Shown piece by piece: positions 1,422 through 58,761 of a stretch of 64,000 bases of DNA; the first letter of the stretch is position 1, and each line of letters starts with the position of its first letter. Source of the DNA: a virus (Duplodnaviria; Caudoviricetes); the IMG/VR virus record IMGVR_UViG_3300031994_000013, positions 103,251-167,250 of that record; one strand, given 5' to 3'. Both the position numbers and the translations under genes were made by a program. The notes beneath the pieces were generated by a model, which worked only from the letters and a program-made list of their open reading frames with translations, made no database searches and had not been told where the DNA came from.

Positions 1422-2621
1422 ATGAAATACCAGAGAATCGTGCGAGGACTTACAGATACCGACCTATATAAGTTCAATATGCTACAGGTTATTTTTAATC
1501 GCCATACCGACCTCACGGGTGTTTATGAGTTTGTATGCCGCAATAAGGGTGTGAAATTCACTGACGCAATGGTGGATGAAATCGAGCAACAGGTCAATGC
1601 GCTGTGTAACCTGCGCTTTACTGACACAGAAATTGACTACCTACGCACAATTCGCTTTCTGAAGCCTGGCTTTGTTGAGTTCCTGCGTTTCTGGTATCCG
1701 CGCCGCGAGTATGTAGAAATTAGCCGAGATGCAGATTGCGGCTTGAAGATTGAGGTGCGCGGGCCCCTCTTCGCGGCGATGATGTTTGAAATTTACTTGC
1801 TTGAAATCGTTAGTGAAGTTTATTACCGTGAAACCTATGATTGGGAAAAGTTAAGTGCTGACTTTATGGCGCTAACTGATGAAAAGGTACAAAAGTTCCA
1901 GAATGGCATTTATACTTTTAAGTTTGCCGATTTTGGTTGCCGCCGCAGATTCTCTTATGACCTTGAAGAATACGCAGTTAATGAATATGCTAAATGCGGA
2001 GCACTAATTGGTACTTCCAATGTAATGCTCGCAATGAATTATAATTTGAAACCAATCGGCACAATGGCACACGAGATGTTCCAGATGTATCAAGGCATTC
2101 CCTCCATTCCCCTTGCTTATACCACTAAAGCTTGCCTTGATGAATGGTATGATGTGTATCAGGGTGATAACGGCGTGGCACTAACCGACACACTTACCAC
2201 AGACCTCTTCCTTCTTGATTTTGACCGTAAGATGGCGGCAACCTTTACTGGTGTAAGAAATGATAGCGGCGACCCCTACGAATGGGGCGAGCGCATGATT
2301 AAGCACTGGAAGACCCTAAATATTGACCCCAAGACAAAGACGCTATTGTTTTCTAACTCCCTTACTCTTGATGAAGCACAGGCTCTATATGAATATTTTA
2401 AAGATAAGGCAATGGTAGGCTTTGGTATTGGCGGTCACATCTGCACTGAGGCACCCGGCGTAACGCCGCTAAATATTGTTATCAAACTTCAGTATGTTGA
2501 TAATCAGCCTGTTGCGAAGATTTCGGACGATGAAGGCAAAACGCTTTGTCAGGATAAGGAATATATTGAATACTTGAAGAACGCAATTAACTTTAGATTG
2601 AATAGAGAAAGGAAACGGTAA
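1422..2621 (+). CDS. pncB: nicotinate phosphoribosyltransferase
   Basis: DTDLYKFNM, DFGCRRRFS, GTSNV, GTMAHE, DSGDP, KISDDEGK motifs. Confidence 0.95.
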   Translation: MKYQRIVRGLTDTDLYKFNMLQVIFNRHTDLTGVYEFVCRNKGVKFTDAMVDEIEQQVNALCNLRFTDTEIDYLRTIRFLKPGFVEFLRFWYPRREYVEISRDADCGLKIEVRGPLFAAMMFEIYLLEIVSEVYYRETYDWEKLSADFMALTDEKVQKFQNGIYTFKFADFGCRRRFSYDLEEYAVNEYAKCGALIGTSNVMLAMNYNLKPIGTMAHEMFQMYQGIPSIPLAYTTKACLDEWYDVYQGDNGVALTDTLTTDLFLLDFDRKMAATFTGVRNDSGDPYEWGERMIKHWKTLNIDPKTKTLLFSNSLTLDEAQALYEYFKDKAMVGFGIGGHICTEAPGVTPLNIVIKLQYVDNQPVAKISDDEGKTLCQDKEYIEYLKNAINFRLNRERKR

Positions 2622-2626
2622 TAGGT

Positions 2627-3982: not shown

Positions 3983-4506
3983 AAATGAAAGATGTAAGGC
4001 CATATAGCGTATGGACTTATCCATACTCGCGCCGCTACTACTGGCGGCATCCTTGGGTCTTATTGAAAGATTTTTGGTGGAATCTTAAAGCAGCTTATTG
4101 GAGAAGCAAGTATGGTTTTGCACCACGAGATGTTTGGGAGCTTGGTTATACCTTTCTAGAGGTCATGCCACAGATGTTAAAATATTTGGCAGAAAATGGT
4201 AGCGGCTATCCCGGTGATGATGAATTTCCAACTCCTGAAAGTTGGTATAATCATCTAATGTCAATTGCTAATCTACTTGAAAATGCGCGTGATGCAGTTA
4301 GAGATGAGAAAAATGAATACTATCCCGCGTATAGAGATAAAATCAATGGCAACTGGCGTCCAGATAATGCAAAGACTTTTACTCCTGACGATATTGTAAA
4401 GCGCTATATCAATCGTGATAATGAACTTGCGCGCGAACAAGATATTATGATTGAGGAAGCATTAGAGCTTCTTAAAAAGACACAACTTAAAGCACTTTGG
4501 GATTAG
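3979..4506 (+). CDS. hypothetical Trp-rich phage protein
   Basis: 175 aa ORF coupled to nadD/E. Confidence 0.65.
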   Translation: MKMKDVRPYSVWTYPYSRRYYWRHPWVLLKDFWWNLKAAYWRSKYGFAPRDVWELGYTFLEVMPQMLKYLAENGSGYPGDDEFPTPESWYNHLMSIANLLENARDAVRDEKNEYYPAYRDKINGNWRPDNAKTFTPDDIVKRYINRDNELAREQDIMIEEALELLKKTQLKALWD

Positions 4507-33434: not shown

Positions 33435-33510
33435 TATTATGTTGAAAGGGGAAAGGAACCCAATCAACGAAATATAAATTGCGGGTAGGGAACCGCAAGG
33501 AGACTATATT

Positions 33511-34625: not shown

Positions 34626-34696
34626 GGGGATTTAGTTTAACGGTAAAATAGATGCTTTGCAAGCATTTGTCATCAGTTCGATTCTGATAGTCTCCA
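34626..34696 (+). tRNA. tRNA-Ala(TGC)
   Basis: cloverleaf, G3:U70. Confidence 0.9.
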
Positions 34697-35927: not shown

Positions 35928-36210
35928 TTTCTGCTTGTGTTTAATGAGCACGAGCCTTGTAAAAGAAAATATAGTTCAGCGGGATACTGGCTTATACTAG
36001 TTGACATTTTCTTTAATACAATCTCCAGCGTGAGTAAAAACCGCCTTGGACTGGGTGAGATGCCTATCGTTGCGGCCGCCAACGAAGTAACGTAAACAGT
36101 TATGAGCGGTTATAATTACCTTGCTATCAGGTCTTAATTTAGGATAGCTACTTATAGGTAAGACTATACGGGTGCGGCGTTCGTCAGCTCAGAGATAGCA
36201 TGCCGAATTT

Positions 36211-36351
36211 GCCCGGTTAGCTCAGTCGGTAGAGCATGCGGCTGTGACAGAGAGATGATTTGGTAATCATGTGAGGGACGCCCACGTTGCGAGTTCAATT
36301 CTCGCCTCTGTATTAACCGCAGTGTCGGGGGTTCGAGCCCCTCACCGGGCG
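36211..36351 (+). tRNA. tRNA-Asn(GTT) interrupted by tRNA-like insert 36246-36313
   Basis: TGCGG CTGT|TAA CCGCA after removal. Confidence 0.9.
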
Positions 36352-36450
36352 GTCAAGTTGGAGGATAGAACAGGCAGCTATCGCCCATTGTTAGGAGATG
36401 CGGGAGTGTCGCCCCGCCCAGCATTAATTTTATAAGAATGAGGTAAATTT

Positions 36451-36999
36451 ATGGCTCTAAAAATTCTCAGCCCATGGCAGGTTTGGTATGCTGATGTAAA
36501 GGCAATGTTTCAGGAAGATAATGAAATTGGTGTAATATTTGATAATGATACATTAGAGCTTACTGTGTATGTAGAGAATGCAGATAAGGCTGATGCCCTA
36601 GGACAGCTTCTACCTACTGAAAAGCATTTTGGTAATCAGGTTGTAAAGGTTAGCGTCATTCCCGCGAATGTACCTAAGACCGCATTAAAGCTAAATCGTG
36701 CGAATCTTTATGAAAGGGCATTTGCTGATAATCCTGCACTAGAAAAGGTAGTGACAATTGAAGGCGTTATGTCTAATACACTAACTTATGTTGTCTTTAA
36801 GAAACAAGTAGTACAGTATTATATTGATGACCTTGGCGATATCTATGGTAATAGAACTACTTTGTATCAAGAGATTGCAAAGAATATATTTGAAGCAGCG
36901 GAAGGCGTGTTTTTCTGTACGGCAAATGAAACAGAATTTAAGTTAAATATGACTAATCATGGTTGGATTACAACTACTTGTTGTAGTTCAAGTAATTGA
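36451..36999 (+). CDS. hypothetical phage protein
   Basis: 182 aa, VFKKQVVQYY.DDLGD. Confidence 0.7.
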   Translation: MALKILSPWQVWYADVKAMFQEDNEIGVIFDNDTLELTVYVENADKADALGQLLPTEKHFGNQVVKVSVIPANVPKTALKLNRANLYERAFADNPALEKVVTIEGVMSNTLTYVVFKKQVVQYYIDDLGDIYGNRTTLYQEIAKNIFEAAEGVFFCTANETEFKLNMTNHGWITTTCCSSSN

Positions 37000-37058
37000 C
37001 TTTTTTCTAAATTTATGCTATAATAAATATATCAAAAGGGAACGAAAGTTCCCAATAT

Positions 37059-37130
37059 GGCCCTATGGTCTAATGGCTATGATACGTGACTGTCTATCAC
37101 GAGGTTGCAGTTCAATTCTGCGTAGGGTCG
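37059..37130 (+). tRNA. tRNA-Asp(GTC)
   Basis: cloverleaf, G73. Confidence 0.9.
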
Positions 37131-37138
37131 TTGCCTTA

Positions 37139-37258
37139 AAGACGGTTCAGCAATTATTTTGAAAATTTATGCAGTATAATAAAGGGGCGGGTTCGAATCC
37201 CGCAGCATAAGGTGGGCACTTATGTTTGGTGTAGCGGTAGCATTCATTTCGCCGTCTT
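37139..37258 (+). ncRNA. CAGCAA/Y-like RNA 2 with permuted tRNA domain
   Basis: AAGACGG/CCGTCTT; T-arm, closed acceptor, D-arm order. Confidence 0.8.
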
Positions 37259-37264
37259 GATTTT

Positions 37265-37352
37265 CCTACTCAAGCATAATTGGTACATGCCACGGCCTTA
37301 TAAGCCGGAGACCCTCACAAGGTTAGTCCACGTTCAAGTCGTGGGAGTAGGA
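37265..37352 (+). tRNA. tRNA-Ile(TAT) with long variable region
   Basis: CCTACTC/GAGTAGG, loop CTTATAA, A73. Confidence 0.8.
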
Positions 37353-37355
37353 TTT

Positions 37356-37472
37356 TAGACCTGTCAGCAATTATTTCTTTTGCATGTGGAGCACGTATGT
37401 GATGGTTCGAATCCATCTTTGGGCCGATGCGCCCAAATAGCTCAATGGTAGAGCGCGTAATAAGTGGGTCTA
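37356..37472 (+). ncRNA. CAGCAA/Y-like RNA 3 with permuted tRNA domain
   Basis: TAGACC/GGTCTA; GATGGTTCGAATCCATC, TTTGGGC/GCCCAAA, TAGCTCAATGGTAGAGC. Confidence 0.8.
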
Positions 37473-37551
37473 GTTTTTATATGGAACTAATCTATCCTGA
37501 GTTCCTGCGGTTCAAGGATAGGGCGGTGGCTGCCCAAAGTCGCAATTATAT

Positions 37552-37669
37552 GGCCCCTTAGCCCAATTGGCAGAGGCAATAGACCATCAATAGCCAGAGC
37601 GAAATGAGGTCATCACTCATATTGATGTTCAAAATCTATCAAGTATCAGTTCGAATCTGATAGGGGCTA
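37552..37669 (+). tRNA. tRNA-Leu(CAA) interrupted by mini-tRNA insert 37585-37628
   Basis: ATAGA C|TCAAAA TCTAT after removal. Confidence 0.85.
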
Positions 37670-37748
37670 TTAAAAAAATCGCGGGACGCGAAGAAAAAAG
37701 AGTAATGCGTCTGCTTATATAATACTATTTATGTAGGAGGCGATAATT

Positions 37749-38354
37749 ATGAAAAAATGGGAAAAATTCTCTGAAAAAGAGTTGCTTGAGATTATTCAAA
37801 ATAGTCGAAGTTATAGAGAAGTCGCTCAAAAATTAGGTTATAATCCTGATAGTGGTAGTGGTATGAAAGCTATTAAGGATATGATAGAGACGAAACAATT
37901 TGATATATCGCATTTTTTAGGGCAGGGTTGGAATAAAAATAATTTTGATTATTCGCGTTTCCAGTATGGGAAAAATATTAAAGCCGTATTAATGTTAGAT
38001 GCTTTAATTAATTTACGCGGCAGAAAATGTGAAAAATGCGGTTTAACAAAATGGGAAAATTTTCCTATTCCACTAGAAGTACATCATATTGATGGAGACC
38101 ATTTGAATAATACATTAGATAATTTACAAATTCTTTGCTGCAATTGTCATGCTTTAACAGCGAATTTTAAAGGACGAAATCAGCTTAGCGTAGAACGACA
38201 AAATGAAAAAGTATCTGAAGAACAATTAGTAGAAGCATTAAAGACAACTTCTAATGTTCGTCAAGCTCTTTTAAAAGTTGGCTTGACTAGTCGTGGGCAC
38301 AATTATGATAGAGCATATGATTTGATATATAAATATCAAATAAAACAACAATAA
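37749..38354 (+). CDS. HNH homing endonuclease
   Basis: CEKC, LEVHHIDGDHLNN..NLQILCCNCH. Confidence 0.9.
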   Translation: MKKWEKFSEKELLEIIQNSRSYREVAQKLGYNPDSGSGMKAIKDMIETKQFDISHFLGQGWNKNNFDYSRFQYGKNIKAVLMLDALINLRGRKCEKCGLTKWENFPIPLEVHHIDGDHLNNTLDNLQILCCNCHALTANFKGRNQLSVERQNEKVSEEQLVEALKTTSNVRQALLKVGLTSRGHNYDRAYDLIYKYQIKQQ

Positions 38355-38359
38355 TATTA

Positions 38360-38462
38360 TAGGCGTTTTCAGCAATTACCTTTATAGGTTATGGGTTCGA
38401 GTCCCATTTTGCAATCCTTTTTGCGAATCGTCCAATAGGTAGGACAATAAATAAGACGCCTA
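38360..38462 (+). ncRNA. CAGCAA/Y-like RNA 4 with permuted tRNA domain
   Basis: TAGGCGTTT/AGACGCCTA; ATGGGTTCGAGTCCCAT, TTTGCAA/TTGCGAA, GTCCAATAGGTAGGAC. Confidence 0.8.
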
Positions 38463-38791
38463 GTATTTTAAAGATGGATTTTTTCCATCTTATTTTTATA
38501 ATTGACTTTTCTCTAAAATTATGATATAATTTTTTTAGAAAAAAGGAAATGAGGAAATAATATGGATAAGGAAACTCTAAGTAGCACTGCGACAAAAAGT
38601 CAATTTATTGATTCTATTTATAATTGGTTAATGCGCACGCTCGATGAGAAGGGCAACGGACAATATAAGGAATGTTTTCAAAAAGAGGGCTCAAGTATAA
38701 TTTGTTCTCTTCCAGATAATTATTTTAATAGTTATACTATTCCTCATGGCACTAAAATTGAAATGAAATTTATTAGTAAAAAGGGATAATA

Positions 38792-39226
38792 ATGAAAATT
38801 TATACTTCTTATTTCGCGCAAATGCGTAATTTTCCTAAAAATCTTGTTTCGCTTTCAACCGCAGTTTGGAATCCTAAATGGTTGCCGCTTGGGCGCGATA
38901 AGCAAGGTCATATTTGGCTAGATATTCCGCCGCTAAAGCCAGGATATAATTGTAATGGCTTATGTAATGGAAAATGTAATCCAAAGCATCCACAGGATTG
39001 TGCTTTTCTTCAAGAATATCGCAAACAGTTGAACGGTATAGATATTCATAATATTCTAAATGAATTACAAGTTTTAAAAAATGATATTGAAGTTGCGGAG
39101 AGCCTAGAGAATGTAGAGTTTGTGCTATTATTTTTTGAGACTCCGGATAATCCTTGTAGTGAGCGGCAAGTCGTTATTGAATGGCTTAAAGAAAATAATA
39201 TCGAAACTGAGGAATGGAGAAAATGA
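38792..39226 (+). CDS. DUF488-like protein
   Basis: MKIYTSYF, LLFFETP..CSER..W. Confidence 0.6.
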   Translation: MKIYTSYFAQMRNFPKNLVSLSTAVWNPKWLPLGRDKQGHIWLDIPPLKPGYNCNGLCNGKCNPKHPQDCAFLQEYRKQLNGIDIHNILNELQVLKNDIEVAESLENVEFVLLFFETPDNPCSERQVVIEWLKENNIETEEWRK

Positions 39227-39719
39227 TAAAAATTATTAAGCATGGGCACGCGCAATATCATATGACATGTAAATTTTGTGATTGTTTATTCTCTTTTGAA
39301 GACAGTGATATAAAATTTTCTGGTAATCAGCGAGATTGGATAGAATATATCGAATGCCCAGAATGCGGGCATGAGATTGATATTGTTAATCGTGCGTTCT
39401 ATAAGTTTAAGGAGAGTAAAGACTAATATAATGAAAGATAGGAAAATTTTTTTTATAGCAGTGTTAATTGCTATATTACTTTTTATAGGCGTAGTATTTT
39501 TACAAGAATCGTCCTGTAACATAGTATATAATAATGGCATTTGTACAAGATGCGGAGGACACTATATTTTTCAGCAGGCGGTAGGACATCGATATAATAT
39601 TCGATATATTTACCAATGTGATAAATGTGGCAAGTTAATTGAAATTAATTCTATTCGTTAATTATTTGACTTCTTTCTAAATTTATGCTATAATTATTAT
39701 AGAAAGTGAGGGAAAGAAA

Positions 39720-40067
39720 ATGAAGGAATACAGTATGAAATCTCATAATCGCCGCGCTCATCAGCGTTGGCTTAATAAGTTTTGCCGCGATGTTAATAAA
39801 TCTATTTATGATGATAATCTGTGGCGCGGGCGCTTTGTTGTAGAACAGGTTTCTACTCAGATGGATTGGTTTGAGGATAAAAGCGGTGGTATCCTTCGTT
39901 GTGTTCTTCGCTTTCGTGATAAGAAAACTGGCTGTACTAAGCTTTGTTATACCGATTGTCTTGAAGTTGCTTGGAATATGTTTTTTCAGATGAATGACTT
40001 TATTGTAAAAGATTGTGCTGTTTGGGATAAGGAAGACCCTTATAAGGAGATTGAATCATGGAGATAA
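39720..40067 (+). CDS. hypothetical phage protein
   Basis: promoter and RBS upstream; DNLWRGRF. Confidence 0.65.
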   Translation: MKEYSMKSHNRRAHQRWLNKFCRDVNKSIYDDNLWRGRFVVEQVSTQMDWFEDKSGGILRCVLRFRDKKTGCTKLCYTDCLEVAWNMFFQMNDFIVKDCAVWDKEDPYKEIESWR

Positions 40068-40265
40068 AGAGACCCGTTACTGTAGAGTTTAATTATTATA
40101 ATGATAATAACGAATTTGATGACGATGTTAATTTAACTTTTAGAACTACGCCAGATATGACTATTGGGCAATTACACGCTTTTTGTAAGCGTTTTGCTAT
40201 TGCACTTAGTTTTTCACCAAAGCAGGTTGAAGAAGCTTTTGGTGAAGATATAGAAGATAGAATTT

Positions 40266-40350
40266 AGAAGGGTGCCTGAGTGGTCAATAGGAGCGGTTTG
40301 CTAAATCGTCGTAGGGTAACCTACCGCAAGTTCGAATCTTGTCCCTTCTG
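40266..40350 (+). tRNA. tRNA-Ser(GCT)
   Basis: class II cloverleaf, G73. Confidence 0.9.
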
Positions 40351-40431
40351 TTCGCCAATTTAACTGGTTGGCGCGCCAGCTATGGATTAAATAGCGACCC
40401 AGCTCGCGGGCATTCTAAATAGCGAGCACGT

Positions 40432-40503
40432 ACCCTTCTAGGCTAACGGAAAGACCATACGGCTACGAACCGTAAAATGAAAGTTCGATTCTTTCGGAGG
40501 GTG
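40432..40503 (+). tRNA. tRNA-Arg(ACG)
   Basis: TACGG CTACGAA CCGTA; imperfect D stem. Confidence 0.8.
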
Positions 40504-40511
40504 TCAATTAT

Positions 40512-40621
40512 GCGGTGGTATCCAAGCAGACAAAGGGGCCAACCGGTAAGTTTGGTGCCTACGCCGGTATGCTAGCTAGAACCGTGGGCTTCGCAGGTGC
40601 AAATCCTGACCCGCCGCACCA
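40512..40621 (+). tRNA. aberrant Tyr-like tRNA with enlarged variable arm
   Basis: GCGGTGG/CCGCCGC-ACCA; loop CGGTAAG. Confidence 0.5.
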
Positions 40622-40629
40622 TTTATTAT

Positions 40630-40713
40630 GCGTCAGTGTGACTAGTAGCGAGGTCAGGTGACTGTAAATCACCCACATTAGAAACATCGGTGGTGCAATT
40701 CCATCCTGGCGCA
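40630..40713 (+). tRNA. tRNA-Tyr(GTA)
   Basis: GGTGA CTGTAAA TCACC. Confidence 0.85.
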
Positions 40714-40720
40714 TTAGCCG

Positions 40721-40792
40721 AGACCAGTCAGCAATAATTGTATTTTTTGCTAGAAATGCAGCGGGTCGGCTCCGCCTAAGATGAACTGGTCT
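40721..40792 (+). ncRNA. CAGCAA/Y-like RNA 5
   Basis: AGACCAGT/ACTGGTCT + CAGCAA. Confidence 0.7.
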
Positions 40793-40798
40793 AGTTTT

Positions 40799-40946
40799 GT
40801 GCCCGTAGCTCAGTTGGTAGAGCACTTGACTTTGGGGTAGTAATGTAAAGAGCATACTATTAGAGACGTCTAATAGAGGACAAGGTGCAATACCTTGATA
40901 CTCCACCATAATCAAGGGGTCGCGAGTTCGAGCCTCGCCGGGCACA
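40799..40946 (+). tRNA. tRNA-Lys(TTT) interrupted by tRNA-like insert 40834-40908
   Basis: CTTGA CTTT|TAA TCAAG after removal. Confidence 0.9.
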
Positions 40947-40950
40947 TTAT

Positions 40951-41022
40951 AGGAGCTTAGGACAATGGCTAGTCTTTCTGTCTCCAAAACAGACGATGGG
41001 CGTTCAAATCGCTCAGCTCCTG
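40951..41022 (+). tRNA. tRNA-Trp(CCA)
   Basis: cloverleaf, loop CTCCAAA. Confidence 0.9.
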
Positions 41023-41038
41023 TCACTTATGAAAAAAT

Positions 41039-41114
41039 GCGTCTGAACCCTGACGGTCGGGGGAGGGCCTGCAAAACCCTTTTTTATTAGTTGGTTCAAC
41101 TCCAACCAGGCGCT
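41039..41114 (+). tRNA. tRNA-Cys(GCA)
   Basis: loop CTGCAAA, U73. Confidence 0.85.
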
Positions 41115-41842
41115 TAAAGGAGAGATAATATTATGAATGAACTTAAAAGATTAGTTAACCAAAAGACTGACCGCCCCGTAACACCTACGACTACAACAAC
41201 CGTGCCAGTCTCACAGTCTGTAACAGCCACTTCCCTTCAATATGGTTGGATTTGTCCTAAATGTGGCTCTGTGATGGCACCAAATCAAACAAGTTGTATT
41301 TTCTGCATTCCAACTTTTAATGTTACGACTGCGACGCCAAATATGTCACCTGTAGTAATTTGTACTAGTAAAGGTTATAGTCGGGACTGAAATATTTGAC
41401 TTTTATTCAAATTTGTGCTATAATATATACATAAAGAATGAAAGAAAGGATTGATAACAGTATGCGTAAGTTGGTTTTTTCTTCTTCTTGGAGTAGGGTT
41501 AAGCAAGCGAAGATGCTAGATGACCCTCAGTAACTGGCGCTTTATCATCAGTAGGTGATACGAAATTACGGTAAGTCGTTATACGGCGCCACCGTTTTTT
41601 TAAAAAAAGAAAGGTAGAATAAGTTATGTTTAGTTATGTAGTTACTTTTTTCGACAATGAAATTAGAGCAACCACGACCGAAAAGGGCATTGTGGCGGCG
41701 GAAACCTATGGCAAAGCCGCGGATAGGCTTGTGAGCTTTTATGGAAAATCTTTTCTAATGACTATGGCTCTTACTGAACTTAATGACATTCTAACCGAAG
41801 AAGAAATTACAGAAGAGTTTGAAACTCAGGGAGAAGATTAAA

Positions 41843-42088
41843 ATGTATCATCGTACTCATATTCGTTTAATTACACAAACCGATGCAGCAAATTTCGTAG
41901 CGAGTCTTAATCGTGATGGCACGACTGACCACTATGTGCTTGAAACAGTAGATGGTAAGGTCCGTGTTAGTGCCCGTTCATTACTTGGCGTGCTTTATTT
42001 TGTTTCAGAGCATAATAAGGAAACTTATTTAGTTAATGAAACTAATGATGGAGTGATTCCAAGCGGTATCGACCAGTATCGTATTTAA
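41843..42088 (+). CDS. HPr-like protein
   Basis: AANFV...VSARSLLGVL (Ser46-like motif). Confidence 0.6.
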   Translation: MYHRTHIRLITQTDAANFVASLNRDGTTDHYVLETVDGKVRVSARSLLGVLYFVSEHNKETYLVNETNDGVIPSGIDQYRI

Positions 42089-42101
42089 TGCGATACTTTG
42101 A

Positions 42102-42232
42102 TGGCGTGTAGCCAAGTGGTTAAGGCACAGGACTTTCAGGCAATAGCATAAGTAATGCCATAGAATAATAGTTCAAATCTATTTTGCCTGTGACTCCTGT
42201 ATTCGTAGGTTCGACCCCTACCACGCCAGCCA
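42102..42232 (+). tRNA. tRNA-Gln(TTG) interrupted by tRNA-like insert 42137-42191
   Basis: CAGGA CTTT|GAC TCCTG after removal; encoded CCA. Confidence 0.92.
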
Positions 42233-42237
42233 TTTAT

Positions 42238-42299
42238 TAGGCTTTGTCAGCAACTATTACAAAAATTTGACTTGAAATCAAAGGAACAAAGAAAGCCTA
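42238..42299 (+). ncRNA. CAGCAA/Y-like RNA 6
   Basis: TAGGCTTT/AAAGCCTA; internal TTTGA CTTGAAA TCAAA. Confidence 0.75.
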
Positions 42300-42309
42300 G
42301 AAATTTTTA

Positions 42310-42409
42310 TAGACCAGCACAGCCATTTATTTTAACAATGGATAAATTATTTTTTTCTCAATAAAAAAAATATAGAAGGTTCAAATCCTTCAAAATTAAA
42401 ACTGGTCTA
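42310..42409 (+). ncRNA. CAGCCA/Y-like RNA 7
   Basis: TAGACCAG/CTGGTCTA; CTCAATA loop + T-arm GAAGGTTCAAATCCTTC. Confidence 0.7.
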
Positions 42410-42764
42410 GTTTTTATTACAAGAAAGGACGCAAAATAATGGAAGTAATGTATCATCGTAAGAACGGTAAGCGCTATGAAGTTTATGATTATATAACAGA
42501 TAAGCATACCATTGCTATTTGTTACGATACGGCACAGGCGGGGCAGTGCGGCCAGGGTTGGTGTAGAATTCCTTTGAAAGAATTGGTTCCAGAATGTCAT
42601 GCAAATAAGACTACAGGGCAATTTGAGTCTAACACTATTAAAAATGCCATTAAACGAAATTTACAACCAGTAGCTTGGCGTTGTACTGATGGTACAGTAT
42701 TTGACCATTCTAAGATTGATGAAGCAATTGAATATCAAAGAACACTTATGACGACGGAGCAAGA

Positions 42765-43205
42765 ATGAGACAGTTAATAATCGCGCGAAAAGATTTACAG
42801 ATGAGCCCTGGTAAATTGGCGGCACAAGTAGCACATGCAAGTTGGGCATTTTTATCGCAGCAAATTCGCAGCTGTACTATTAACGAACAAGATACTCAAA
42901 ATACGTGGATTAAATTATGTATTAATACTGATACGTATAATGAATGGTTTTGTGGTATCTTTACAAAAACTGTTTGCGAAGCTAAAAATTATAATCAACT
43001 GATGAAAGCAGTTGACTATGCACGCGAATTGGGGTTAGAAGAGGGAGTAGATTTTTTCCTCATTAAAGATGCTTGTCTCACGGAGCTTACTCCCGAAGAA
43101 ACTGATGAAAATGGTGTTGGACGCACATTAACTTGTATTGGTTTTCGTCCATTACCTGACGAAATCGCCCATGCGATTTCAAAGCATTATCAACTTTATA
43201 AGTAA
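42765..43205 (+). CDS. pth2: peptidyl-tRNA hydrolase Pth2 family
   Basis: RKDLQMSPGKLAAQVAHA, IKDACLTE, TCIGFRP. Confidence 0.9.
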   Translation: MRQLIIARKDLQMSPGKLAAQVAHASWAFLSQQIRSCTINEQDTQNTWIKLCINTDTYNEWFCGIFTKTVCEAKNYNQLMKAVDYARELGLEEGVDFFLIKDACLTELTPEETDENGVGRTLTCIGFRPLPDEIAHAISKHYQLYK

Positions 43206-43208
43206 ATA

Positions 43209-43338
43209 ATTGTGGTGGCGGAATAGGTAGACGCTAGACGGTTTGAACCCGTGCATCAAGGAAGACTTGGCTTGGCTATGAGGTCATAGATTTTACTCAG
43301 AAGGAAATCATGTAAGGTGCAAATCCTTACCCACAATT
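43209..43338 (+). ncRNA. tRNA-like RNA (Leu-type D/T arms, no normal anticodon arm)
   Basis: ATTGTGG/CCACAAT, GGCGGAATAGGTAGACGC, GTAAGGTGCAAATCCTTAC. Confidence 0.7.
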
Positions 43339-43427
43339 TAGAATGTAACGGCTGATTACATATACATTTTCGCAATCTATATAGATACAATCAAGTTACC
43401 CCATGCGATGCAAGGTAACATCAGCCA

Positions 43428-43513
43428 TCGGCCTACACAGCAATTAATTTCAAGAAAATTCTATCTGTTGAAGAAAGCATATTCTAGCGGGTTGAAAACC
43501 CGTAATAGGCCGA
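43428..43513 (+). ncRNA. CAGCAA/Y-like RNA 8
   Basis: TCGGCCTA/TAGGCCGA; GCGGG TTGAAAA CCCGT. Confidence 0.75.
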
Positions 43514-43518
43514 GTTAT

Positions 43519-43708
43519 GCTCTTGTAGCTCAATGGTAGAGCAGCGCACTTGTCGAGTTAGTTTAAAGTAAAACACCCGAATCACAGGGAAAAGACCGTA
43601 TGATAAACTAATTGATTGACGAATCAATTAGGCGAAGATATGTGAGTTCGTAACTCACACTCGGCTCCAGTAATGCGCAGGTTGTAGGTTCAAGTCCTAT
43701 CGGGAGCT
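43519..43708 (+). tRNA. tRNA-Thr(TGT) interrupted by tRNA-like insert 43552-43669
   Basis: GCGCA CTT|GTAA TGCGC after removal. Confidence 0.9.
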
Positions 43709-44526
43709 TTTAACTGTCATCTTAGGAAGTGTTATTTATGAGGACGACGGCAGAAAAACGACATAATGATTATACGAAAGCAATCCGTAAGCGTAGGATT
43801 GACCGCGAGACACAGCCCAGTGGATATGACTGGTACAATAATCTTCATCAATATAGTAAAAATAAGATTCATTGTTCTTGTCCAATGTGTTCTGTGAAAA
43901 CTAATAATCGCGGCAATAATGGTTGGAAACCCAATACCTTATGGCGTATCACCGATCAAAAGAAGTTGGATGCTTTACAATATAACGAGGAAGATGAATA
44001 ATCTTCCTCGTTTTTTATTTGACTATTTCTTAAAATTATGATATAATTTATATACAATATTGGATAGGCGAAATATTAATCAAGAAAAGAGGGAGCCATA
44101 ATGGAAAAGAAAGAATTAGTTGCAGGTAAGCGCTATCAATGGCCAGATGTAACTCCTGGCGGCCGCATGATTAATGGTCTTTTTACTGGAAAATACGAAA
44201 AGAACGGTAACGCTTTATTACAGTGTCGTAATGGCGACATCTGGTCTGTTTCACCACAAAATTGTGAGCCAATGCCAAGAAAGGAAAAATGATATGAAGA
44301 ATTTTATTAAATTAACTAATACTGATGGGACTGCACTTTATATTAATTATAAAATTATTGAAAGTTTATCTCAACATAAAGATAAAGATTATACTTATAC
44401 TATCCTAGCCACAATTGGGTCAGAAGATGGTTTTTATAGAGTAAAAGAATCACCAGAAGCAATTCTAGCATTAATTGATGTTTTGACAAATTAAAAAAAA
44501 TATAGTATAATGAAAGGAATGATAGT

Positions 44527-45012
44527 ATGCGAAAGCCTATTCTTTATATACTCTGCGGTTGTCCAGGATGCGGAAAAACATATTGGGCAAATAAATTTAT
44601 GTATAATCTTATTAATACAAAGTATGTTTCGCGCGATGAAATTCGCCTTTCTTTACTTAATAATGATGAAGAATATTTTTCACACGAAGAAGAAGTGTTT
44701 ACTAAATTTGTAGCTATGATAAGAGCTAATTTAGTGGATGGATATGATTGTATTGCAGACGCCACTCATTTAAATGTAAAATCTCGCAAAAAGCTTATCC
44801 ATGCTCTTGATTTTTATGGTAAATTAGATTGTCAAATTATTTTTGTATATTTCAACGCTCCTTTGGAAGTATGTCTTGGCCGCAACGAACAGCGTGAAGG
44901 TCGTGCTCGTGTTCCTGTAAATGTAATTCAATCTATGCGAGAACGCTTTCAAAAGCCAGCTATGACAGAGGATGAAAGATGTATTGGACTTATGCTAATG
45001 AAAGGATATTAA
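44527..45012 (+). CDS. polynucleotide kinase-like P-loop protein (AAA_33)
   Basis: GCPGCGKT, SRDEIR, DATH, RNEQR. Confidence 0.85.
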   Translation: MRKPILYILCGCPGCGKTYWANKFMYNLINTKYVSRDEIRLSLLNNDEEYFSHEEEVFTKFVAMIRANLVDGYDCIADATHLNVKSRKKLIHALDFYGKLDCQIIFVYFNAPLEVCLGRNEQREGRARVPVNVIQSMRERFQKPAMTEDERCIGLMLMKGY

Positions 45013-45290: not shown

Positions 45291-45956
45291 ATGGGAAAGA
45301 TTTATAAAGTTACAAATAAAATTAATGGTAATATTTATATTGGCCAAACACGACAACCAATTAATACTCGTTGGTTAAAGCACTGTTATTCAGCAGAAAC
45401 CTCTAATGATAAAGATTATTTTTGTCCTCTACATAATGCTATTCGTAAATATGGACGAGATAGTTTTCTAATAGAAGAAATTGAAGACTGTGATAATGAT
45501 TTATTAAATGAACGTGAACGTTATTGGATTCAATTTTATGATAGTTATAATAATGGTTATAATGCCGCTTTGGGTGGAGAAGGGCATACTAAATATGACT
45601 ATGATAAAATTATAGATTATTTTTTAAAACATGGCAATAATCTTTTAGCTACTTGTCAAGAATTTAATATTTATGACCAAGTGGTGTATACAGCTTTACA
45701 ATCTAAAAATATTGATTATAAAGCATTAAAAAATATAAATCCAAAATGTAAATATGATAAATGGATTCTATTAGTAGAACACAATCTTATTTTCAAACAC
45801 ATAACGGACATTGACCTTTATTTACATAAAAATAATGCACATGGAAATATACGACGATGCCTAAATGGAATTACAGAAAAAGCTTATGGCTATCATTGGA
45901 AGGAGATAGAAAAAGATGGAAATCTTTTTAACCTCGGATACTCATTTTTCACATAA
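45291..45956 (+). CDS. GIY-YIG homing endonuclease
   Basis: KIYKVTN..YIGQT, RW..H, E..WI, GYN; NUMOD1-like AYGYHW tail. Confidence 0.9.
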   Translation: MGKIYKVTNKINGNIYIGQTRQPINTRWLKHCYSAETSNDKDYFCPLHNAIRKYGRDSFLIEEIEDCDNDLLNERERYWIQFYDSYNNGYNAALGGEGHTKYDYDKIIDYFLKHGNNLLATCQEFNIYDQVVYTALQSKNIDYKALKNINPKCKYDKWILLVEHNLIFKHITDIDLYLHKNNAHGNIRRCLNGITEKAYGYHWKEIEKDGNLFNLGYSFFT

Positions 45957-46509
45957 TCAACAATTTATATATGAGTCCCGTGGTTTTACAAATGTTCAAG
46001 ACATGAATGAGACAATAATGGAAAATTGGAATAAAATTGTACCATATGACGCACTTATTTATCATCTTGGAGATATGGCATTAAATAATTTAGATGATGC
46101 AATTAAATATATTAAAAATTTAAATGGTAAAATTATTTGGCTTCGGGGTAATCATTGTACTGATAATAAAATTACTAAAATTCTTGAAAACTGTCCAAAT
46201 GTAACAATGCCAAATGAAATGTATGCCACTGTACTGAAATATAGGAAACTAACTTGTTATCTTTCACACTATCCTACCTTGACAGCCAATTACGATGATA
46301 AACATTTCAGCCAGCATGTAGTGAATTTTCACGGTCATACTCATCAGCAAACTAACTGGCTTAATCCAACGAATCCATTTATGTATCACGTGGGAATGGA
46401 TTCTCATAATTGCACACCAATCCATATTGAAGAGGCAATAAGTGACATTCGCAACAGATGGAATGAAATCGGTCAGCTTCCAGTTTCTATGCAGCCAGAA
46501 GATATATGA
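45916..46509 (+). CDS. calcineurin-like metallophosphoesterase
   Basis: SDTH, HLGD, GNH, SHYP, HGHTH. Confidence 0.9.
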   Translation: MEIFLTSDTHFSHNQQFIYESRGFTNVQDMNETIMENWNKIVPYDALIYHLGDMALNNLDDAIKYIKNLNGKIIWLRGNHCTDNKITKILENCPNVTMPNEMYATVLKYRKLTCYLSHYPTLTANYDDKHFSQHVVNFHGHTHQQTNWLNPTNPFMYHVGMDSHNCTPIHIEEAISDIRNRWNEIGQLPVSMQPEDI

Positions 46510-48228: not shown

Positions 48229-48307
48229 TCAAAATTATGTTATAATAAATACATAAAGAAAAAACCTGCGGTCTTGACAAAAGACTAAGATGAAAAGGAG
48301 AAAAAAT

Positions 48308-49834
48308 ATGGCTAATACTTTTATGAACGCGATGAAGTCCCAGAATAATTTTAAGCTTACAGAGAATCAAGCAGTAGCTAAGAAGTCAACCATGTCTAAG
48401 CTTTATGACCTATTTGCTCTTGGCGGAGCTTACCGTACCCGTAGTGAGAGTGATTGTGTGCTTCTCTTTAAGGAAGCCTATATGGAGAGCCCTCGATATG
48501 CGATGAAGTGCCTGACGTACCTCAGAGATATTTTGGAGGGTCAAGGCGAGCGTCGTTTCTTCCGTGTATGCCTGCATTGGCTTGGTAATAACTATCCTGA
48601 AGCCGCCCGCCAGAATCTGCGTGAGTGGGTAGATGGTAACTTTATCCGTTGGGACGACCTGTTTGTACTCTTCGATACTCCTGTTGAGCGTGAAGTAATG
48701 GCACTCATTCGTCATCAGCTAACCCGCGATATGGCTATTTATAATGATGATCCTCGGGCATCGGTATCTCTTTGCGCGAAGTGGATGCCTTCCGAGAATA
48801 CATCTAGTGCTACTACTCGTCATAACGCTCGCCGCGTTATGGCTGCTCTTGAGCTTACTCCTCGTGAGTATCGTAAGATGCTCTCTATGCTGCGTGAGCG
48901 TATTAAGGTAGTAGAGCGTCTTATGTCTCAGAACCGTTGGGAAGAAATTGACTTCTCTAAGCTTCCTTCTCGCGCTGGTCTTATCTATCGTAATGTGTTT
49001 AAAAGTAAGGGCCTGATTGCCGAAAAGTACAAGGCTTTTGCACAGGATAAGACTACTAAGGTCAATGCTGGTACTCTATATCCTTATGATGTAGTGGCGG
49101 CCGCCCTTAAGTGTATGGGTAATGGTTACGGTGAGCCTGCCCTGAACGATACCGAGCGCCTTATGGTAAACAAGTATTGGGACAACCTTACTGATTACTT
49201 TAAGGGCGCAACTCTCAACGCTATGGTAGTTTGCGATACCTCTGGGTCGATGACTTGGAGCGGCAATGGCACCGTAAAGCCTATTGACGTTGCTGTATCT
49301 CTTGCACTCTATACCGCAGAGCGTGCTAAGGGGCCTTTTGCAAATCACTATATCTCCTTCAGCCATACTGCTCGTCTAGTTGAGACTAAGGGTGTGGATT
49401 TTTGCGATAAGGTAGCACGCATCGTAAGTACCAATCTTTGTGAGAATACTAATCTACAAAGCGTATTTGACCTAGTGCTAAATACTGCGATGCAGAATAA
49501 TGTTGATCCAGAAGATATGCCTAAGACTCTTATCGTCGTAAGTGATATGGAAGTTGATTCAGCAACTGGGCACTATGGTTATCAAAAGACGGACTTTATG
49601 TCTTCTATTCGTCAGAAGTGGGAAGCTAGGTGCGGCGGCTGGTATGATTTTCCCAACCTTGTGTATTGGGATGTCAATGCTCGCAATAACACCTTCCTTG
49701 AGGATTCTAAGACTGGCGTAACCTTCGTAAGCGGTTGTTCTCCTGTACTATACGAGCAAATTATGTCTGGTAAGACGTCTATAGATCTAATGCTTGAAAA
49801 ACTAAATAGTGAGAGATATAACGCTATTCACTAA
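48308..49834 (+). CDS. DUF2828 / TROVE(Ro60)-like protein with vWA domain
   Basis: RDI..GQGERR, RWDDL, AKWMPSE, LYPYD, VCDTSGSM, SDME, SGCSP. Confidence 0.85.
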   Translation: MANTFMNAMKSQNNFKLTENQAVAKKSTMSKLYDLFALGGAYRTRSESDCVLLFKEAYMESPRYAMKCLTYLRDILEGQGERRFFRVCLHWLGNNYPEAARQNLREWVDGNFIRWDDLFVLFDTPVEREVMALIRHQLTRDMAIYNDDPRASVSLCAKWMPSENTSSATTRHNARRVMAALELTPREYRKMLSMLRERIKVVERLMSQNRWEEIDFSKLPSRAGLIYRNVFKSKGLIAEKYKAFAQDKTTKVNAGTLYPYDVVAAALKCMGNGYGEPALNDTERLMVNKYWDNLTDYFKGATLNAMVVCDTSGSMTWSGNGTVKPIDVAVSLALYTAERAKGPFANHYISFSHTARLVETKGVDFCDKVARIVSTNLCENTNLQSVFDLVLNTAMQNNVDPEDMPKTLIVVSDMEVDSATGHYGYQKTDFMSSIRQKWEARCGGWYDFPNLVYWDVNARNNTFLEDSKTGVTFVSGCSPVLYEQIMSGKTSIDLMLEKLNSERYNAIH

Positions 49835-49904: not shown

Positions 49905-50825
49905 GTGGTAATTATGGTTACTCTTATAGATTTAACAGGAAAGAAAATAGATAAATTATTAGTATTAGAAAAAGCTTTGCCGCATAATAATCACGTTTGG
50001 TGGAAATGTCAATGTGATTGTGGAAATATATGTGAAAAAAGTAGCGAATATTTACGTTCTAGCACTCGACCGCGGGATTGTGGATGCTCTAAATTGAAAA
50101 ATATTAAAAAGAAAAAAGCAGAAGAACGTTATAATAAACTAGTGGGACAACGATTTGGAAGATTATTAGTAGTTTCTCGTACAGAAAGAACTGCGGGAGA
50201 AAAGAAAATTCCAATTTGGCTTTGTAAATGTGATTGTGGTAACTATAAAGAAGTTCCAAGTTATAGCCTTTTAAAAGGTCATACTCAATCTTGTGGCTGT
50301 CTTATTATAGATAATAAATGGGTTGATATTACAGGGCAAACTTTTGGAAGATGGACTGTTCTTAAACGAGATCCTAATAATCATAAAAAATGGATTTGTA
50401 AATGCGAATGTGGAACTGAAAAATCGGTGGATGGATATAACTTAAGAATTGGTCAAACACAATCTTGTGGTTGTATTAATTACTCTATCGGAGAATATAA
50501 TATAACCCAATTATTAAAGACTAATAATATAAAATTTATTAAAGAATATACTAATTCAGAATTACAGTTAAAACGTTTCGATTTTGCTATTTTGAACGAA
50601 CAAGAACAAATTGTTCGTTTAATTGAATTTGATGGTGAACAGCATTATACAGAACGTAATCGTTGGAATAATAGTGATTCTTTAAAAACGATTCAACAGC
50701 GCGACAAAGAAAAAAATCAATATGCACTTTCTCATAATATTCCGCTAGTCCGTATTCCCTATTGGGAACGAGACAAGATTACTTTAGAAATGATTATGGG
50801 AGATCAATATTTAGTCAAAGAATAA
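49905..50825 (+). CDS. putative homing endonuclease (Cys-repeat DNA-binding units + PD-(D/E)xK-like domain)
   Basis: 3x GQ.FG..W.CxCxCG..SCGC; RFDF..IEFDGEQHY..RD..K. Confidence 0.8.
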   Translation: MVIMVTLIDLTGKKIDKLLVLEKALPHNNHVWWKCQCDCGNICEKSSEYLRSSTRPRDCGCSKLKNIKKKKAEERYNKLVGQRFGRLLVVSRTERTAGEKKIPIWLCKCDCGNYKEVPSYSLLKGHTQSCGCLIIDNKWVDITGQTFGRWTVLKRDPNNHKKWICKCECGTEKSVDGYNLRIGQTQSCGCINYSIGEYNITQLLKTNNIKFIKEYTNSELQLKRFDFAILNEQEQIVRLIEFDGEQHYTERNRWNNSDSLKTIQQRDKEKNQYALSHNIPLVRIPYWERDKITLEMIMGDQYLVKE

Positions 50826-57432: not shown

Positions 57433-58761
57433 ATGTCTTATTATGGTTATGTAGTAAAGGTGGAGCATCTGCGCCCGCACTCTAATGCTGATAGGCTTCA
57501 GGTGGCTACTTTCTTCGGAAACGATACTATCGTTAGCCTTGATACTCAGCTTGGCGAGATGGGTATTTACTTTCCTGTAGACGGTCAGCTTTCTGAGCGT
57601 TATTGCGCAGTAAATGATCTGGTGCGCCGTAAGGATGAGAACGGTAACTACTGCGGTGGTTATCTTGACCCTGACAAGCGCAACATCAAGGCTATCAAGC
57701 TTCGTGGCGAGAAGTCTGATGGTTTGTTTATGCCTATCACTTCACTGGCCGATTTCTGCACTATCTCCGATCTTAAGGTGGGTGACCGCATTGATGTTCT
57801 GAATGGTGAGGAAATTTGCCACAAGTATATTCCTCATAGCAATGCATCCGTGCAATATCATGGCGCGAAGGCACCTCGCAAGGCAAAGGCTAACATTGCT
57901 CCTACCTTCTACGAGCACGTAGATACCGAGCAGCTTGCTTATAACCTCGATAAGTTTAAGGTCGGCGATACTGTACAATTGACCCTGAAGATGCACGGCA
58001 CTTCTGGCCGTACTGGCTATCTGCCTCTACTTCAGAAGCGTTCTATCTGGGATAAGATTTTCCATCCTCACAAGGAGATTTATGAGTATGGTTATATAAC
58101 CGGAACTCGTCGTGTAGTTCTTGCGGGCGACCGCAAGGGCGGTTACTACGAGTCTGATGACTTCCGTCGCGCGATGGCGGCTAAGTTTGAGGGCAAGCTT
58201 CGTAAGGGCGAGGTAGTGTATTACGAAATCGTGGGCTTCCAGGGCTACGAGGGCGCACCTATCATGTCTGAGGTTCAGAACTCTAAGGTGAAGGACCCTG
58301 AGTTCTCTAAGCAGTATGGTAAGACCACCATATTCTCTTATGGTTGCGCGGTTGAAGGTGGATATACTGACGACCAGCCTTGCTGCGAAGTATATGTCTA
58401 TCGTATGACTATGGTAAACGCCGATGGTGATGTGGTAGAGTATTCTCCCGCACAAATTAAGGAGCGCTGCGAGCAGATGGGCGTTCATACTGTAATGAAG
58501 TTCGAGACCTTCGTAATTCCTGAGAATATAAATCCCGGCGAGTATGTTCTCCGTAAGGTAGAACAGTACTTTGATGGTCCTGACCCTATCGGTAAGACCC
58601 ATGTGCGCGAAGGTGTAGTGGCGCGTATCCTTAACCGTCCTAACTTCGCAGTTTATAAGCATAAGAATTTTAGTTTCAAGGTTCTTGAAGGCATCGCTAA
58701 GGATGAGGCCGTTGCGCCGGATATTGAGGAGGCTCAGGAACTAATTGAAGAAGGAGAATAA
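57433..58761 (+). CDS. ATP-dependent RNA ligase (Rnl2/DRB0094-like) with N-terminal OB-like domain
   Basis: HSNADRL, KLRGEKSDG; motif I KMHGTS, YEIVG, REGVV, KHKN..F. Confidence 0.88.
   Translation: MSYYGYVVKVEHLRPHSNADRLQVATFFGNDTIVSLDTQLGEMGIYFPVDGQLSERYCAVNDLVRRKDENGNYCGGYLDPDKRNIKAIKLRGEKSDGLFMPITSLADFCTISDLKVGDRIDVLNGEEICHKYIPHSNASVQYHGAKAPRKAKANIAPTFYEHVDTEQLAYNLDKFKVGDTVQLTLKMHGTSGRTGYLPLLQKRSIWDKIFHPHKEIYEYGYITGTRRVVLAGDRKGGYYESDDFRRAMAAKFEGKLRKGEVVYYEIVGFQGYEGAPIMSEVQNSKVKDPEFSKQYGKTTIFSYGCAVEGGYTDDQPCCEVYVYRMTMVNADGDVVEYSPAQIKERCEQMGVHTVMKFETFVIPENINPGEYVLRKVEQYFDGPDPIGKTHVREGVVARILNRPNFAVYKHKNFSFKVLEGIAKDEAVAPDIEEAQELIEEGE

Follow-up and report, generated by a model that had tools for sequence, protein, structure and literature searches.

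A split tRNA-Lys(UUU) gene with a tRNA-shaped insert, and four further interrupted tRNA genes, in a phage found in sheep and goat gut samples

The window studied here (the whole analyzed stretch of 64,000 nt, at the end of a virus record that has a length of 167,250 bp and carries direct terminal repeats) contains a tRNA-Lys(UUU) gene (plus strand, 40799-40946) that is split in its anticodon loop by a 75-nt insert with the shape of a small tRNA. This split gene with its tRNA-shaped insert is real and lies far beyond chance. Four further tRNA genes of the same genome are interrupted by inserts that share one fixed register of tRNA landmarks, and the five split genes suggest that ordinary tRNA-trimming enzymes and an RNA ligase could jointly act as a splicing machine. 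All five belong to a plus-strand array of tRNA genes and other small-RNA genes that occupies 33.8-43.8 kb of the window, as determined using ARAGORN and Rfam. The sequencing runs that contain the window sequence derive from sheep and goat gut samples.

The split tRNA-Lys(UUU) gene and its insert

The Rfam tRNA model matches 40799-40946 with 57 bits, and the insert appears in this match as a 78-nt gap in the anticodon loop. Exon 1 (plus strand, 40799..40833), which is defined by the Rfam match and by the anticodon arm of the related contig L003, extends from G1 to U35 and terminates in CTTGACTTT at 40833. Exon 2 (plus strand, 40909..40946) opens with TAATCAAG at 40909, starts UAAUCA at U36 and extends to A73, with no encoded CCA after it. 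The insert between them (plus strand, 40834..40908) has the 5' end GGGGTAG and the 3' end ATACTCC-A-CCA, and is supported by its sequence, its fold, the fixed-register test and its identity in two other contigs. Once the exons are joined, their anticodon arm exactly matches that of the uninterrupted tRNA-Lys of L003 (GCACTTGACTTTTAATCAAGG); because of this identity and of A73, we assign the gene to Lys(UUU). The loop CTTTTAA is regained solely by loss of exactly 40834-40908, CCA included. A sequence-only reading of this DNA had given the same coordinates and letters, which are exact on direct reading, and its claim that CTTTTAA requires removal of the CCA as well was borne out. It had not recognized the insert as a tRNA mimic whose acceptor end is of alanine type, nor as a member of a family.

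Standard tRNA finders miss or misname such split genes, which is of practical importance. Plain ARAGORN finds no gene at the Lys locus, and ARAGORN with introns allowed places the insert one base off (+1) and labels the gene Gln(UUG). With the latter setting, five interrupted genes were reported in the genome, namely Asn(GUU), a class-I tRNA with anticodon CAA, Lys, Gln, and Thr(UGU), with tRNA-Gln(UUG) misnamed as Glu. Default ARAGORN overlooked five of the 17 phage tRNA genes. An encoded CCA is absent from 16 of these 17 genes and present in one. For Lys, Thr, Asn and Gln, ARAGORN detected no additional gene in the 167-kb genome.

The insert has tRNA landmarks of its own, all on the plus strand: the 5' strand of an acceptor helix (40834-40840), a D-like arm of 4 bp (40843-40855), an 8-bp stem that replaces the anticodon arm (40857-40876) and is capped by GACG (40865-40868), a T arm with a 5-bp stem and the 7-nt loop TGCAATA (40881-40897), the 3' strand of the acceptor helix (40898-40904), A73 (40905), and CCA (40906-40908). 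The acceptor helix is formed by G1-C72, G2-C71, G3.U70, G4-C69, U5-A68, and A6-U67, closes with a G7.A66 mismatch and is followed by U8-A9. In the fixed tRNA register, six of seven acceptor pairs and all five T-stem pairs are present, a score attained by 16 of 200,000 shuffled sequences. Folded alone, the insert is predicted to form a cloverleaf-like structure (-22.3 kcal/mol, z -3.19, equaled by 2 of 200 shuffles), and the 148-nt precursor is predicted to keep the outer tRNA and the inner cloverleaf together (z -3.51, 0 of 200 shuffles).

The same interrupted tRNA-Lys gene was found by a metagenome scan in contigs L126 and L127. The insert is identical there at all 75 positions, the neighboring genes are just 78-90% identical to those of the window by blastn, and the neighboring tRNAs differ. 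The Lys exons, compared with an unchanged insert, carry differences at three of 73 positions, two of which form a compensatory pair in the acceptor stem. In addition, a DNA contig from an independent study spans 40796-41335 with no skip of 75 nt.

Five interrupted genes and a common register

We set the junctions of all interrupted genes from uninterrupted genes of related contigs, independently of any structure in the inserts; the references were the Asn and Thr anticodon arms of L011 and L005, the Gln loop CTTTGAC found in all four relatives, and the loop CTCAAAA of L011 and L126. Beside the Lys gene, the window holds the following four cases, all on the plus strand. The tRNA-Asn(GUU) gene (36210-36352) contains a 68-nt tRNA-shaped insert (36246..36313) at the site CTGT|TAA, which ends in T73 without CCA and has a GACG-capped stem; the anticodon arm of its exons is identical to that of the uninterrupted Asn gene of L011. 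The class-I tRNA gene with anticodon CAA (37552-37669) is interrupted between C32 and U33 by a 44-nt insert of minihelix type (37585..37628) with a T73 end, and its loop CTCAAAA is confirmed by the uninterrupted genes of L011 and L126. The tRNA-Gln(UUG) gene (42102-42232) carries at CTTT|GAC a 55-nt insert (42137..42191) that has a T73 end and no analog of the anticodon arm; the reference for its loop is GGACTTTGACTCC in four relatives. Finally, the tRNA-Thr(UGU) gene (43519-43708) is split at CTT|GTAA by a tRNA-shaped insert of 118 nt (43552..43669) with a long GACG-capped stem and a T73-CCA end.

In each insert, the 7-nt 5' end pairs at six or seven of its seven positions with a 7-nt 3' strand, which is immediately preceded by a T stem with a 7-nt loop and followed by exactly one nucleotide (Asn, CAA, Gln) or by one nucleotide and CCA (Lys, Thr). 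This register holds in all five window inserts and in four inserts from other contigs, which makes nine sequences in seven families. The additional cases are the Thr inserts of L013 and L014, a distinct Thr insert in L126 (67 nt), and the Asn insert of L129-L131 (65 nt). The T stem has five of five pairs in eight of these sequences and four of five in the L129-131 family, where the acceptor helix has six of seven. For seven sequences tested against shuffles, the observed register pairing was matched by 16, 0, 38, 0, 0, 0, and 3 of 200,000 shuffled versions, respectively. All nine inserts fit the substrate geometry of RNase P and RNase Z, in which a 12-bp coaxial stack of acceptor and T stems is combined with a T loop of 7 nt and, at the 3' boundary, an N73 that is single-stranded and may be followed by CCA. 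Two inserts exceed the Rfam tRNA gathering score by themselves (L126 Thr with 47.6 bits and the window Thr with 29.8 bits). A 49-nt insert in the Tyr gene of L003 falls outside the tRNA register and was excluded from the family.

Of the seven families, six have U and one (Lys) has A as N73, two encode the CCA, and six have a U immediately before the 5' cut. The insertion place in the interrupted loop varies (32/33, 34/35, or 35/36), and we therefore take the insert, not the tRNA that carries it, to set the cuts. Four of the seven families (Lys, Asn, window Thr, and L126) share a GACG tetraloop at the tip of the central stem, on stems unrelated in sequence; we know of no reader of this tetraloop. 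Compared with the window, the Thr insert of L013/L014 has undergone compensatory changes in two elements, the acceptor helix and the long stem capped by GACG. From these sequence comparisons, it is evident that selection acts on the inserts.

The class-I CAA tRNA, with its short variable arm, is itself conserved (37552-37669 in the window, 9684-9759 in L011, and 4077-4152 on the reverse strand of L126), whereas bacterial Leu tRNAs are normally of class II.

Four relatives linked through the PTH2 gene have large tRNA arrays in which Thr and Gln are uninterrupted, as are Lys and Asn where present, and a whole-record Rfam scan of five relatives gave a single long tRNA match, the Thr gene of L014. 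ARAGORN over 127 loci found the Lys insert in none beyond L126 and L127. The first pattern used for homologues of the Lys insert in viral contigs returned no stretches, and the Thr pattern with a gap of 59-89 nt also returned none. In searches of a phage collection with blastn, the region 40200-41200 had no match, and the Thr gene was matched in its exons and not in its insert. Several candidates were discarded: a second viral-contig pattern returned 111 stretches, and all 72 matches checked (L015-L094) were coding-like, with none in tRNA genes; two of five hits of the Asn pattern (L128 and L132) were merely adjacent tRNAs; and several of the 23 rows that ARAGORN with introns returned for the 127 loci were merged neighboring tRNAs, as established by inspection for L071 and L100 and judged from coordinates for others.

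One possibility is that a mobile, tRNA-like element has inserted into the tRNA genes and inactivated them and nothing is spliced, which we consider very unlikely. In its favor, relatives lack the inserts, the array contains HNH and GIY-YIG genes of homing type, and an identical insert in a divergent phage could mean recent spread. However, the 7-nt loop is exactly restored in all five window genes, the exons are conserved with covariation, five sole-copy isoacceptors would be lost, and the compensatory changes within the Thr insert indicate that its structure is under selection.

The acceptor end of the Lys insert raises another question, namely whether the insert itself is the product. At positions 1-4 and 69-73, including G3.U70, it has the same letters as the phage tRNA-Ala gene at 34626-34696, and it carries the alanine-minihelix letters G3.U70, A73, G1-C72, and G2-C71, a post hoc observation that applies to one of the seven families. 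The combination of G3.U70 and A73 with G1-C72/G2-C71 is the identity set of alanyl-tRNA synthetase (AlaRS), and AlaRS charges minihelices that carry it. Judged by these letters, the excised Lys insert might be alanylated. The tRNA gene could then be mainly the carrier of a processed mimic that serves as a decoy, sponge or cofactor, perhaps chargeable with alanine in the Lys case, with exon rejoining secondary or absent. In support of this scenario, which we regard as quite unlikely, the insert has changed less than the exons (0/75 against 3/73), the GACG tetraloop recurs in four of seven families, the acceptor letters G1-C72, G2-C71, G3.U70, G4-C69, and A73 agree with tRNA-Ala, and the array also holds Y-RNA-like genes together with a gene for a Ro-like protein in the window. 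It is opposed by the compensatory acceptor pair in the Lys exons, which implies selection on the outer tRNA too, by the other six families, which have no conserved identity set and all have U73, and by the fact that no free-standing copy of the insert was found within the window.

Proposed excision and ligation

In the best reading of these genes, whose chance of being right we put at about even, host RNase P makes the 5' cut, an RNase Z-type enzyme cuts after N73 or CCA, and an ATP-dependent RNA ligase of the phage seals the exons. We infer the enzymatic steps, and with them the existence of a spliced tRNA-Lys, as follows. The precursor would combine a tRNA-Lys body and a small additional domain of tRNA shape that protrudes from the anticodon loop of that body, and the 75 nt would be an intron-like tRNA mimic whose own shape, not that of the interrupted tRNA, dictates both cut sites. 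Host RNase P would cut 5' of G40834, as at +1 of any tRNA, and leave a 3'-OH on U35 of exon 1, and an RNase Z-type 3' tRNA endonuclease (or RNase E) would cut after A40908 and leave a 5'-phosphate on U36 of exon 2. The acceptor and anticodon stems of tRNA-Lys would keep both exons together until the phage ligase (57433-58761) seals the nick, the ends being already ligatable. RNase P and RNase Z leave 3'-OH and 5'-phosphate ends, and an ATP-dependent ligase joins these without end healing. As a by-product, a free 75-nt tRNA mimic would be released, its CCA end mature and its acceptor helix of the alanine type (G3.U70, A73).

The ligase candidate (plus strand, 57433..58761, 442 aa) was recognized by its family profile (PHROG 968 'RNA ligase', E 3.7e-69) and contains the motif I lysine in LKMHGTSG. 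In Pfam, it matches the PHA02142 OB domain and RNA_ligase, both below the cut-off (22.3 vs 27 bits for RNA_ligase). An RNA-ligase match is present in all five insert-bearing virus records searched. Two further genes encode a polynucleotide-kinase-like P-loop protein (plus strand, 44527..45012; Pfam AAA_33, E 1.6e-20; PHROG 505 'polynucleotide kinase') and a metallophosphoesterase that is possibly an RNA end-healing phosphatase (plus strand, 45916..46509; Pfam Metallophos_2; PHROG 547, E 2.9e-39). The ligase had no match to the T4 Rnl1 family (PF09511), yet the controls of this search were also empty. We found no match in the phage to RtcB, Lactamase_B_2 (the RNase Z fold), the CCA-adding family or EndA, and the controls of the EndA search matched only four archaeal genomes among 14. 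As to a phage nuclease for the 3' cut, ten small open reading frames (ORFs) of the array had no informative PHROG match, and four of five array ORFs were empty in Pfam. Since 16 of the 17 tRNAs lack an encoded CCA and the phage has no RNase Z-type or CCA-adding gene, we conclude that the host supplies RNase P, the 3' endonuclease, and CCA addition. This host is a bacterium, as follows from the phage lysin, a GH25 muramidase, and from another protein with peptidoglycan-binding domains; scans of genome contigs with the GH25 lysin and the NAPRTase found no relative.

To look for processed RNA, we identified 24 runs from sheep, goat and other gut samples, two of them RNA, and compared four of these over 36000-44000 (X3 and X5, RNA; X4 and X7, DNA). 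All consisted of assembled contigs, which cannot reveal RNA ends or rare forms. Contigs have loose ends at 40833 in X3 and at 42136 in X4 and X7, beyond which they continue as Lys and Gln genes that are uninterrupted and differ in their T arms; such ends support the places of the junctions only. Apparent joints at 40824/40917 proved to be tRNAs of other organisms, with other anticodon arms and present in the DNA runs too.

Several observations weigh against excision and ligation as outlined above. The contigs of the two metatranscriptome runs covering the array show no 40833-40909 exon joint for the Lys gene. The Lys insert alone (40834-40908) has no Rfam tRNA match at E up to 10, compared with a gathering threshold of 29 bits, and is atypical in its T loop TGCAATA, its D loop without GG, and its G.A mismatch at 7-66; the Asn insert alone also has no Rfam tRNA match. 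The host is a bacterium, and CCA strongly inhibits the best-studied bacterial RNase Z in the presence of Mg2+. As for the ligase, phmmer against PDB sequences found no relative of solved structure, the Pfam match is below the cut-off in four of the five insert carriers (three of these records are about 50% complete), and the gene is also present in all three insert-free relatives, so its presence is permissive and not diagnostic.

The 3' cut is the step on which the encoded CCA bears most directly. The sequence-only reading had held that this cut must follow the CCA (between A40908 and T40909), and its logic is sound on the condition that a working tRNA-Lys is made. Cleavage by an endonuclease is needed here, since the exonuclease route is unsuitable for the Lys and Thr inserts because exon 2 would be destroyed. 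According to the available part of PMC7479834, the RNase Z of Thermotoga maritima and two methanomicrobial enzymes cut after N73 if the precursor lacks CCA and after CCA where it is encoded, whereas Bacillus subtilis RNase Z is slowed by CCA 1520-fold with Mg2+ and 5.8-fold with Co2+, and RNase E is able to make CCA ends directly. The earlier contrast between the B. subtilis and T. maritima enzymes agrees with this account. The choice derived from it, a T. maritima-type RNase Z or another nuclease, was reasonable but too narrow. The dual rule, with a cut after N73 or after CCA, is what all seven insert families need.

Alternatively, the encoded CCA of the Lys and Thr inserts may act as a brake that blocks host RNase Z, so that only RNase P cuts. 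The outcome would be a 5' half and a chimera of insert and exon 2, or slow or conditional splicing, and the resulting latent pool or decoy could not be used by anticodon-arm nucleases such as AriB of the anti-phage system PARIS. We judge this unlikely. In its favor, CCA is present in two of five window inserts as against one of 17 ordinary phage tRNA genes, and B. subtilis RNase Z is slowed 1520-fold by CCA with Mg2+ (available part of PMC7479834). As far as the available part of PMC12409363 goes, Lys(UUU) and Thr(UGU) are prime AriB targets, Asn(GUU) is a secondary one and Gln is uncut in vitro, and AriB cuts at U36AAUC|A41 with 3'-OH/5'-phosphate ends. Three of the five interrupted genes among 17 are thus for AriB targets (hypergeometric 0.015, post hoc), and exon 2 of the Lys gene starts exactly at U36 with the published site UAAUCA. 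On the other side, the Asn insert is CCA-less although Asn is an AriB target too, Gln is interrupted although AriB does not cut it in vitro, and relatives keep the same isoacceptors uninterrupted. The mention of tRNA-Lys(UUU) as a PARIS target in the sequence-only reading is consistent with the same part of PMC12409363, and its suggestion of a reserve protected from PrrC and PARIS would fit the overlap with AriB targets.

Splicing by a known route, either as a self-splicing group I intron or as an archaeal-type bulge-helix-bulge intron, seems extremely unlikely to us. The anticodon loop is the usual home of both, and the likeness extends to group I introns that split tRNA genes in the anticodon loop in bacteria and plastids, and to the short, protein-processed bulge-helix-bulge introns of archaea and eukaryotes, which depend on EndA with RtcB or Trl1. 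However, group I introns are self-splicing ribozymes of about 200 nt or more, whereas the Lys insert has 75 nt and a tRNA fold, and no group I match was obtained in Rfam scans of the region or the insert. Nor is the geometry that of bulge-helix-bulge introns, as the cuts lie opposite each other at the base of a single helix and leave a 3' overhang of 1 nt or (in the Lys gene) 4 nt, in place of two 3-nt bulges 4 bp apart, and the sites are variable and not at 37/38 (35/36 in the Lys gene). EndA and RtcB were not found in the phage, and the host is bacterial.

The proposed excision by RNase P and RNase Z-type enzymes has parallels elsewhere. Signals of tRNA-like shape are cut by these enzymes in mascRNA from MALAT1, plant mitochondrial t-elements, and mitochondrial tRNA punctuation. 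There, as proposed here, a tRNA-shaped element in a longer transcript directs cuts at its own ends; the flanks are not rejoined in those systems, whereas here they are tRNA halves that need ligation. In phage T4, PrrC cuts tRNA-Lys with cyclic-phosphate/5'-OH ends, Pnkp heals them, and Rnl1 seals the break. The present phage resembles T4 in that a phage RNA ligase would act on a break in the anticodon loop of tRNA-Lys(UUU), and in its kinase, phosphoesterase, and ligase genes, but T4 repairs damage by a host nuclease, and here we propose a programmed break with 3'-OH/5'-phosphate ends. The tRNA-like domain of tmRNA and the alanine minihelices are mimics of the acceptor and T arms that have no anticodon and carry G3.U70, A73, and CCA. 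The Lys insert is such a mimic as well; unlike tmRNA, it has no mRNA-like part, and its match to the permuted tmRNA model of Rfam is not significant (6.5 bits, E 8.5).

To our knowledge, self-splicing group I introns are the only recognized route of tRNA splicing in bacteria and their viruses. Introns of the kind described here have been noted once in print, unexplained, and the mechanism, if it holds, would be that of a new intron class. The available parts of the reports on Lak megaphages describe 'enigmatic' tRNA introns that are identical across samples, and give no mechanism (Devoto et al., bioRxiv 10.1101/356790; Nat Microbiol 2019, PMC6784885). Removal of the Lys insert restores a normal anticodon loop, a feature of the Lak-type introns. 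The likeness further includes interruption of phage tRNA genes in the anticodon region, Thr(UGU) among them, and identity of the Lys insert across contigs. In contrast, the Lak list in those parts names Phe, Gly, Thr, and Tyr and has no Lys, the present phage has 167 kb and is not a megaphage, and the N73/CCA register, the GACG loop, and the alanine-type acceptor end do not figure in that part of the Lak account. In the literature searched, supplements excluded, the Lak work was the only one on phage tRNA introns; no paper proposed excision by RNase P and RNase Z, and we came across no published mention of the fixed register, the alanine-type acceptor end, or the coincidence with three targets of PARIS AriB.

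More broadly, and only tentatively, we propose that this bacterial virus may employ a third type of protein-dependent tRNA splicing. Miniature-tRNA introns would be excised by RNase P and a Z-type enzyme and their flanks ligated without end healing, a CCA-ended mimic would be released (with the alanine identity set in the Lys case), and the introns would reside preferentially in isoacceptors targeted by PARIS AriB, possibly as a counter-defense. If this is true, a new splicing pathway is made wholly from housekeeping tRNA enzymes, the 'enigmatic' megaphage introns are accounted for, and phage RNA ligases gain a routine job beside damage repair. It also makes concrete the question whether bacterial 3' tRNA processing can cut precisely after an encoded CCA inside a transcript, and the overlap with three known PARIS targets provides a testable link to anti-phage defense.

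Other small RNAs and neighboring genes

Besides the interrupted genes, the array contains other unusual tRNAs. A 128-nt tRNA-like gene at 43210-43337 has a Leu-type D arm and the T arm TAAGG-TGCAAAT-CCTTA; it was called by neither ARAGORN nor Rfam, its ends match many contigs of other organisms while its middle differs, and it could represent a sixth tRNA that is unusual or interrupted. Another odd tRNA (41038-41114), whose anticodon loop is of GCA type, is missed by ARAGORN, and its sole match is to the Rfam tRNA-Sec model (33 bits, below threshold). Among the relatives, the tRNA arrays of L003, L004, L005, and L011 include tRNAs of the amber suppressor type (anticodon CTA), a hint that TAG may be recoded in that clade, and two Leu genes of L014 (4342-4729 and 7250-7660) have predicted introns of 295 nt and 325 nt, possibly of group I.

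Small RNAs of other families are interspersed within the array. A skipping-rope RNA (36354-36425) scores 51 bits in Rfam, above threshold, and matches below their thresholds were obtained for cow-rumen-3 (35932-36076, 66 bits) and cow-rumen-4 (33439-33497, 41.8 bits). Y-RNA-like repeat units were recognized at 37355-37477, 40719-40798, and 42238-42414, and possibly at 37138-37260 and 38360-38465. One common end of these units, GTCAGCAAYWATT, has three exact matches and one near match (four were reached in 0 of 100 shuffles), and the other common end, GGTCTAGTTTT, has three exact matches. Sub-threshold Rfam matches to YrlA lie at 37393-37461 and 38360-38465, and one unit stops at 40798, abutting G1 of tRNA-Lys. 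A DUF2828/DUF7788 protein, which PHROGs names an RNA-binding protein and which we take to resemble Ro60, is encoded at 48290-49834.

Several protein genes accompany the array. An archaeal/eukaryal-type peptidyl-tRNA hydrolase, PTH2 (42765-43205, E 2.4e-20), is encoded within it and shares 51-68% identity across ten related viral contigs. Homing-type endonuclease genes of the HNH and GIY-YIG kinds are located in or beside the array (37749-38354, 45291-45956, and 49905-50825), the first of them about 80 bp 3' of the interrupted CAA tRNA gene. At the other end of the window, NAD salvage genes (1422-3982) encode NAPRTase and a fused cytidylyltransferase-like/NAD synthase protein, and they could serve NAD replenishment in infection.

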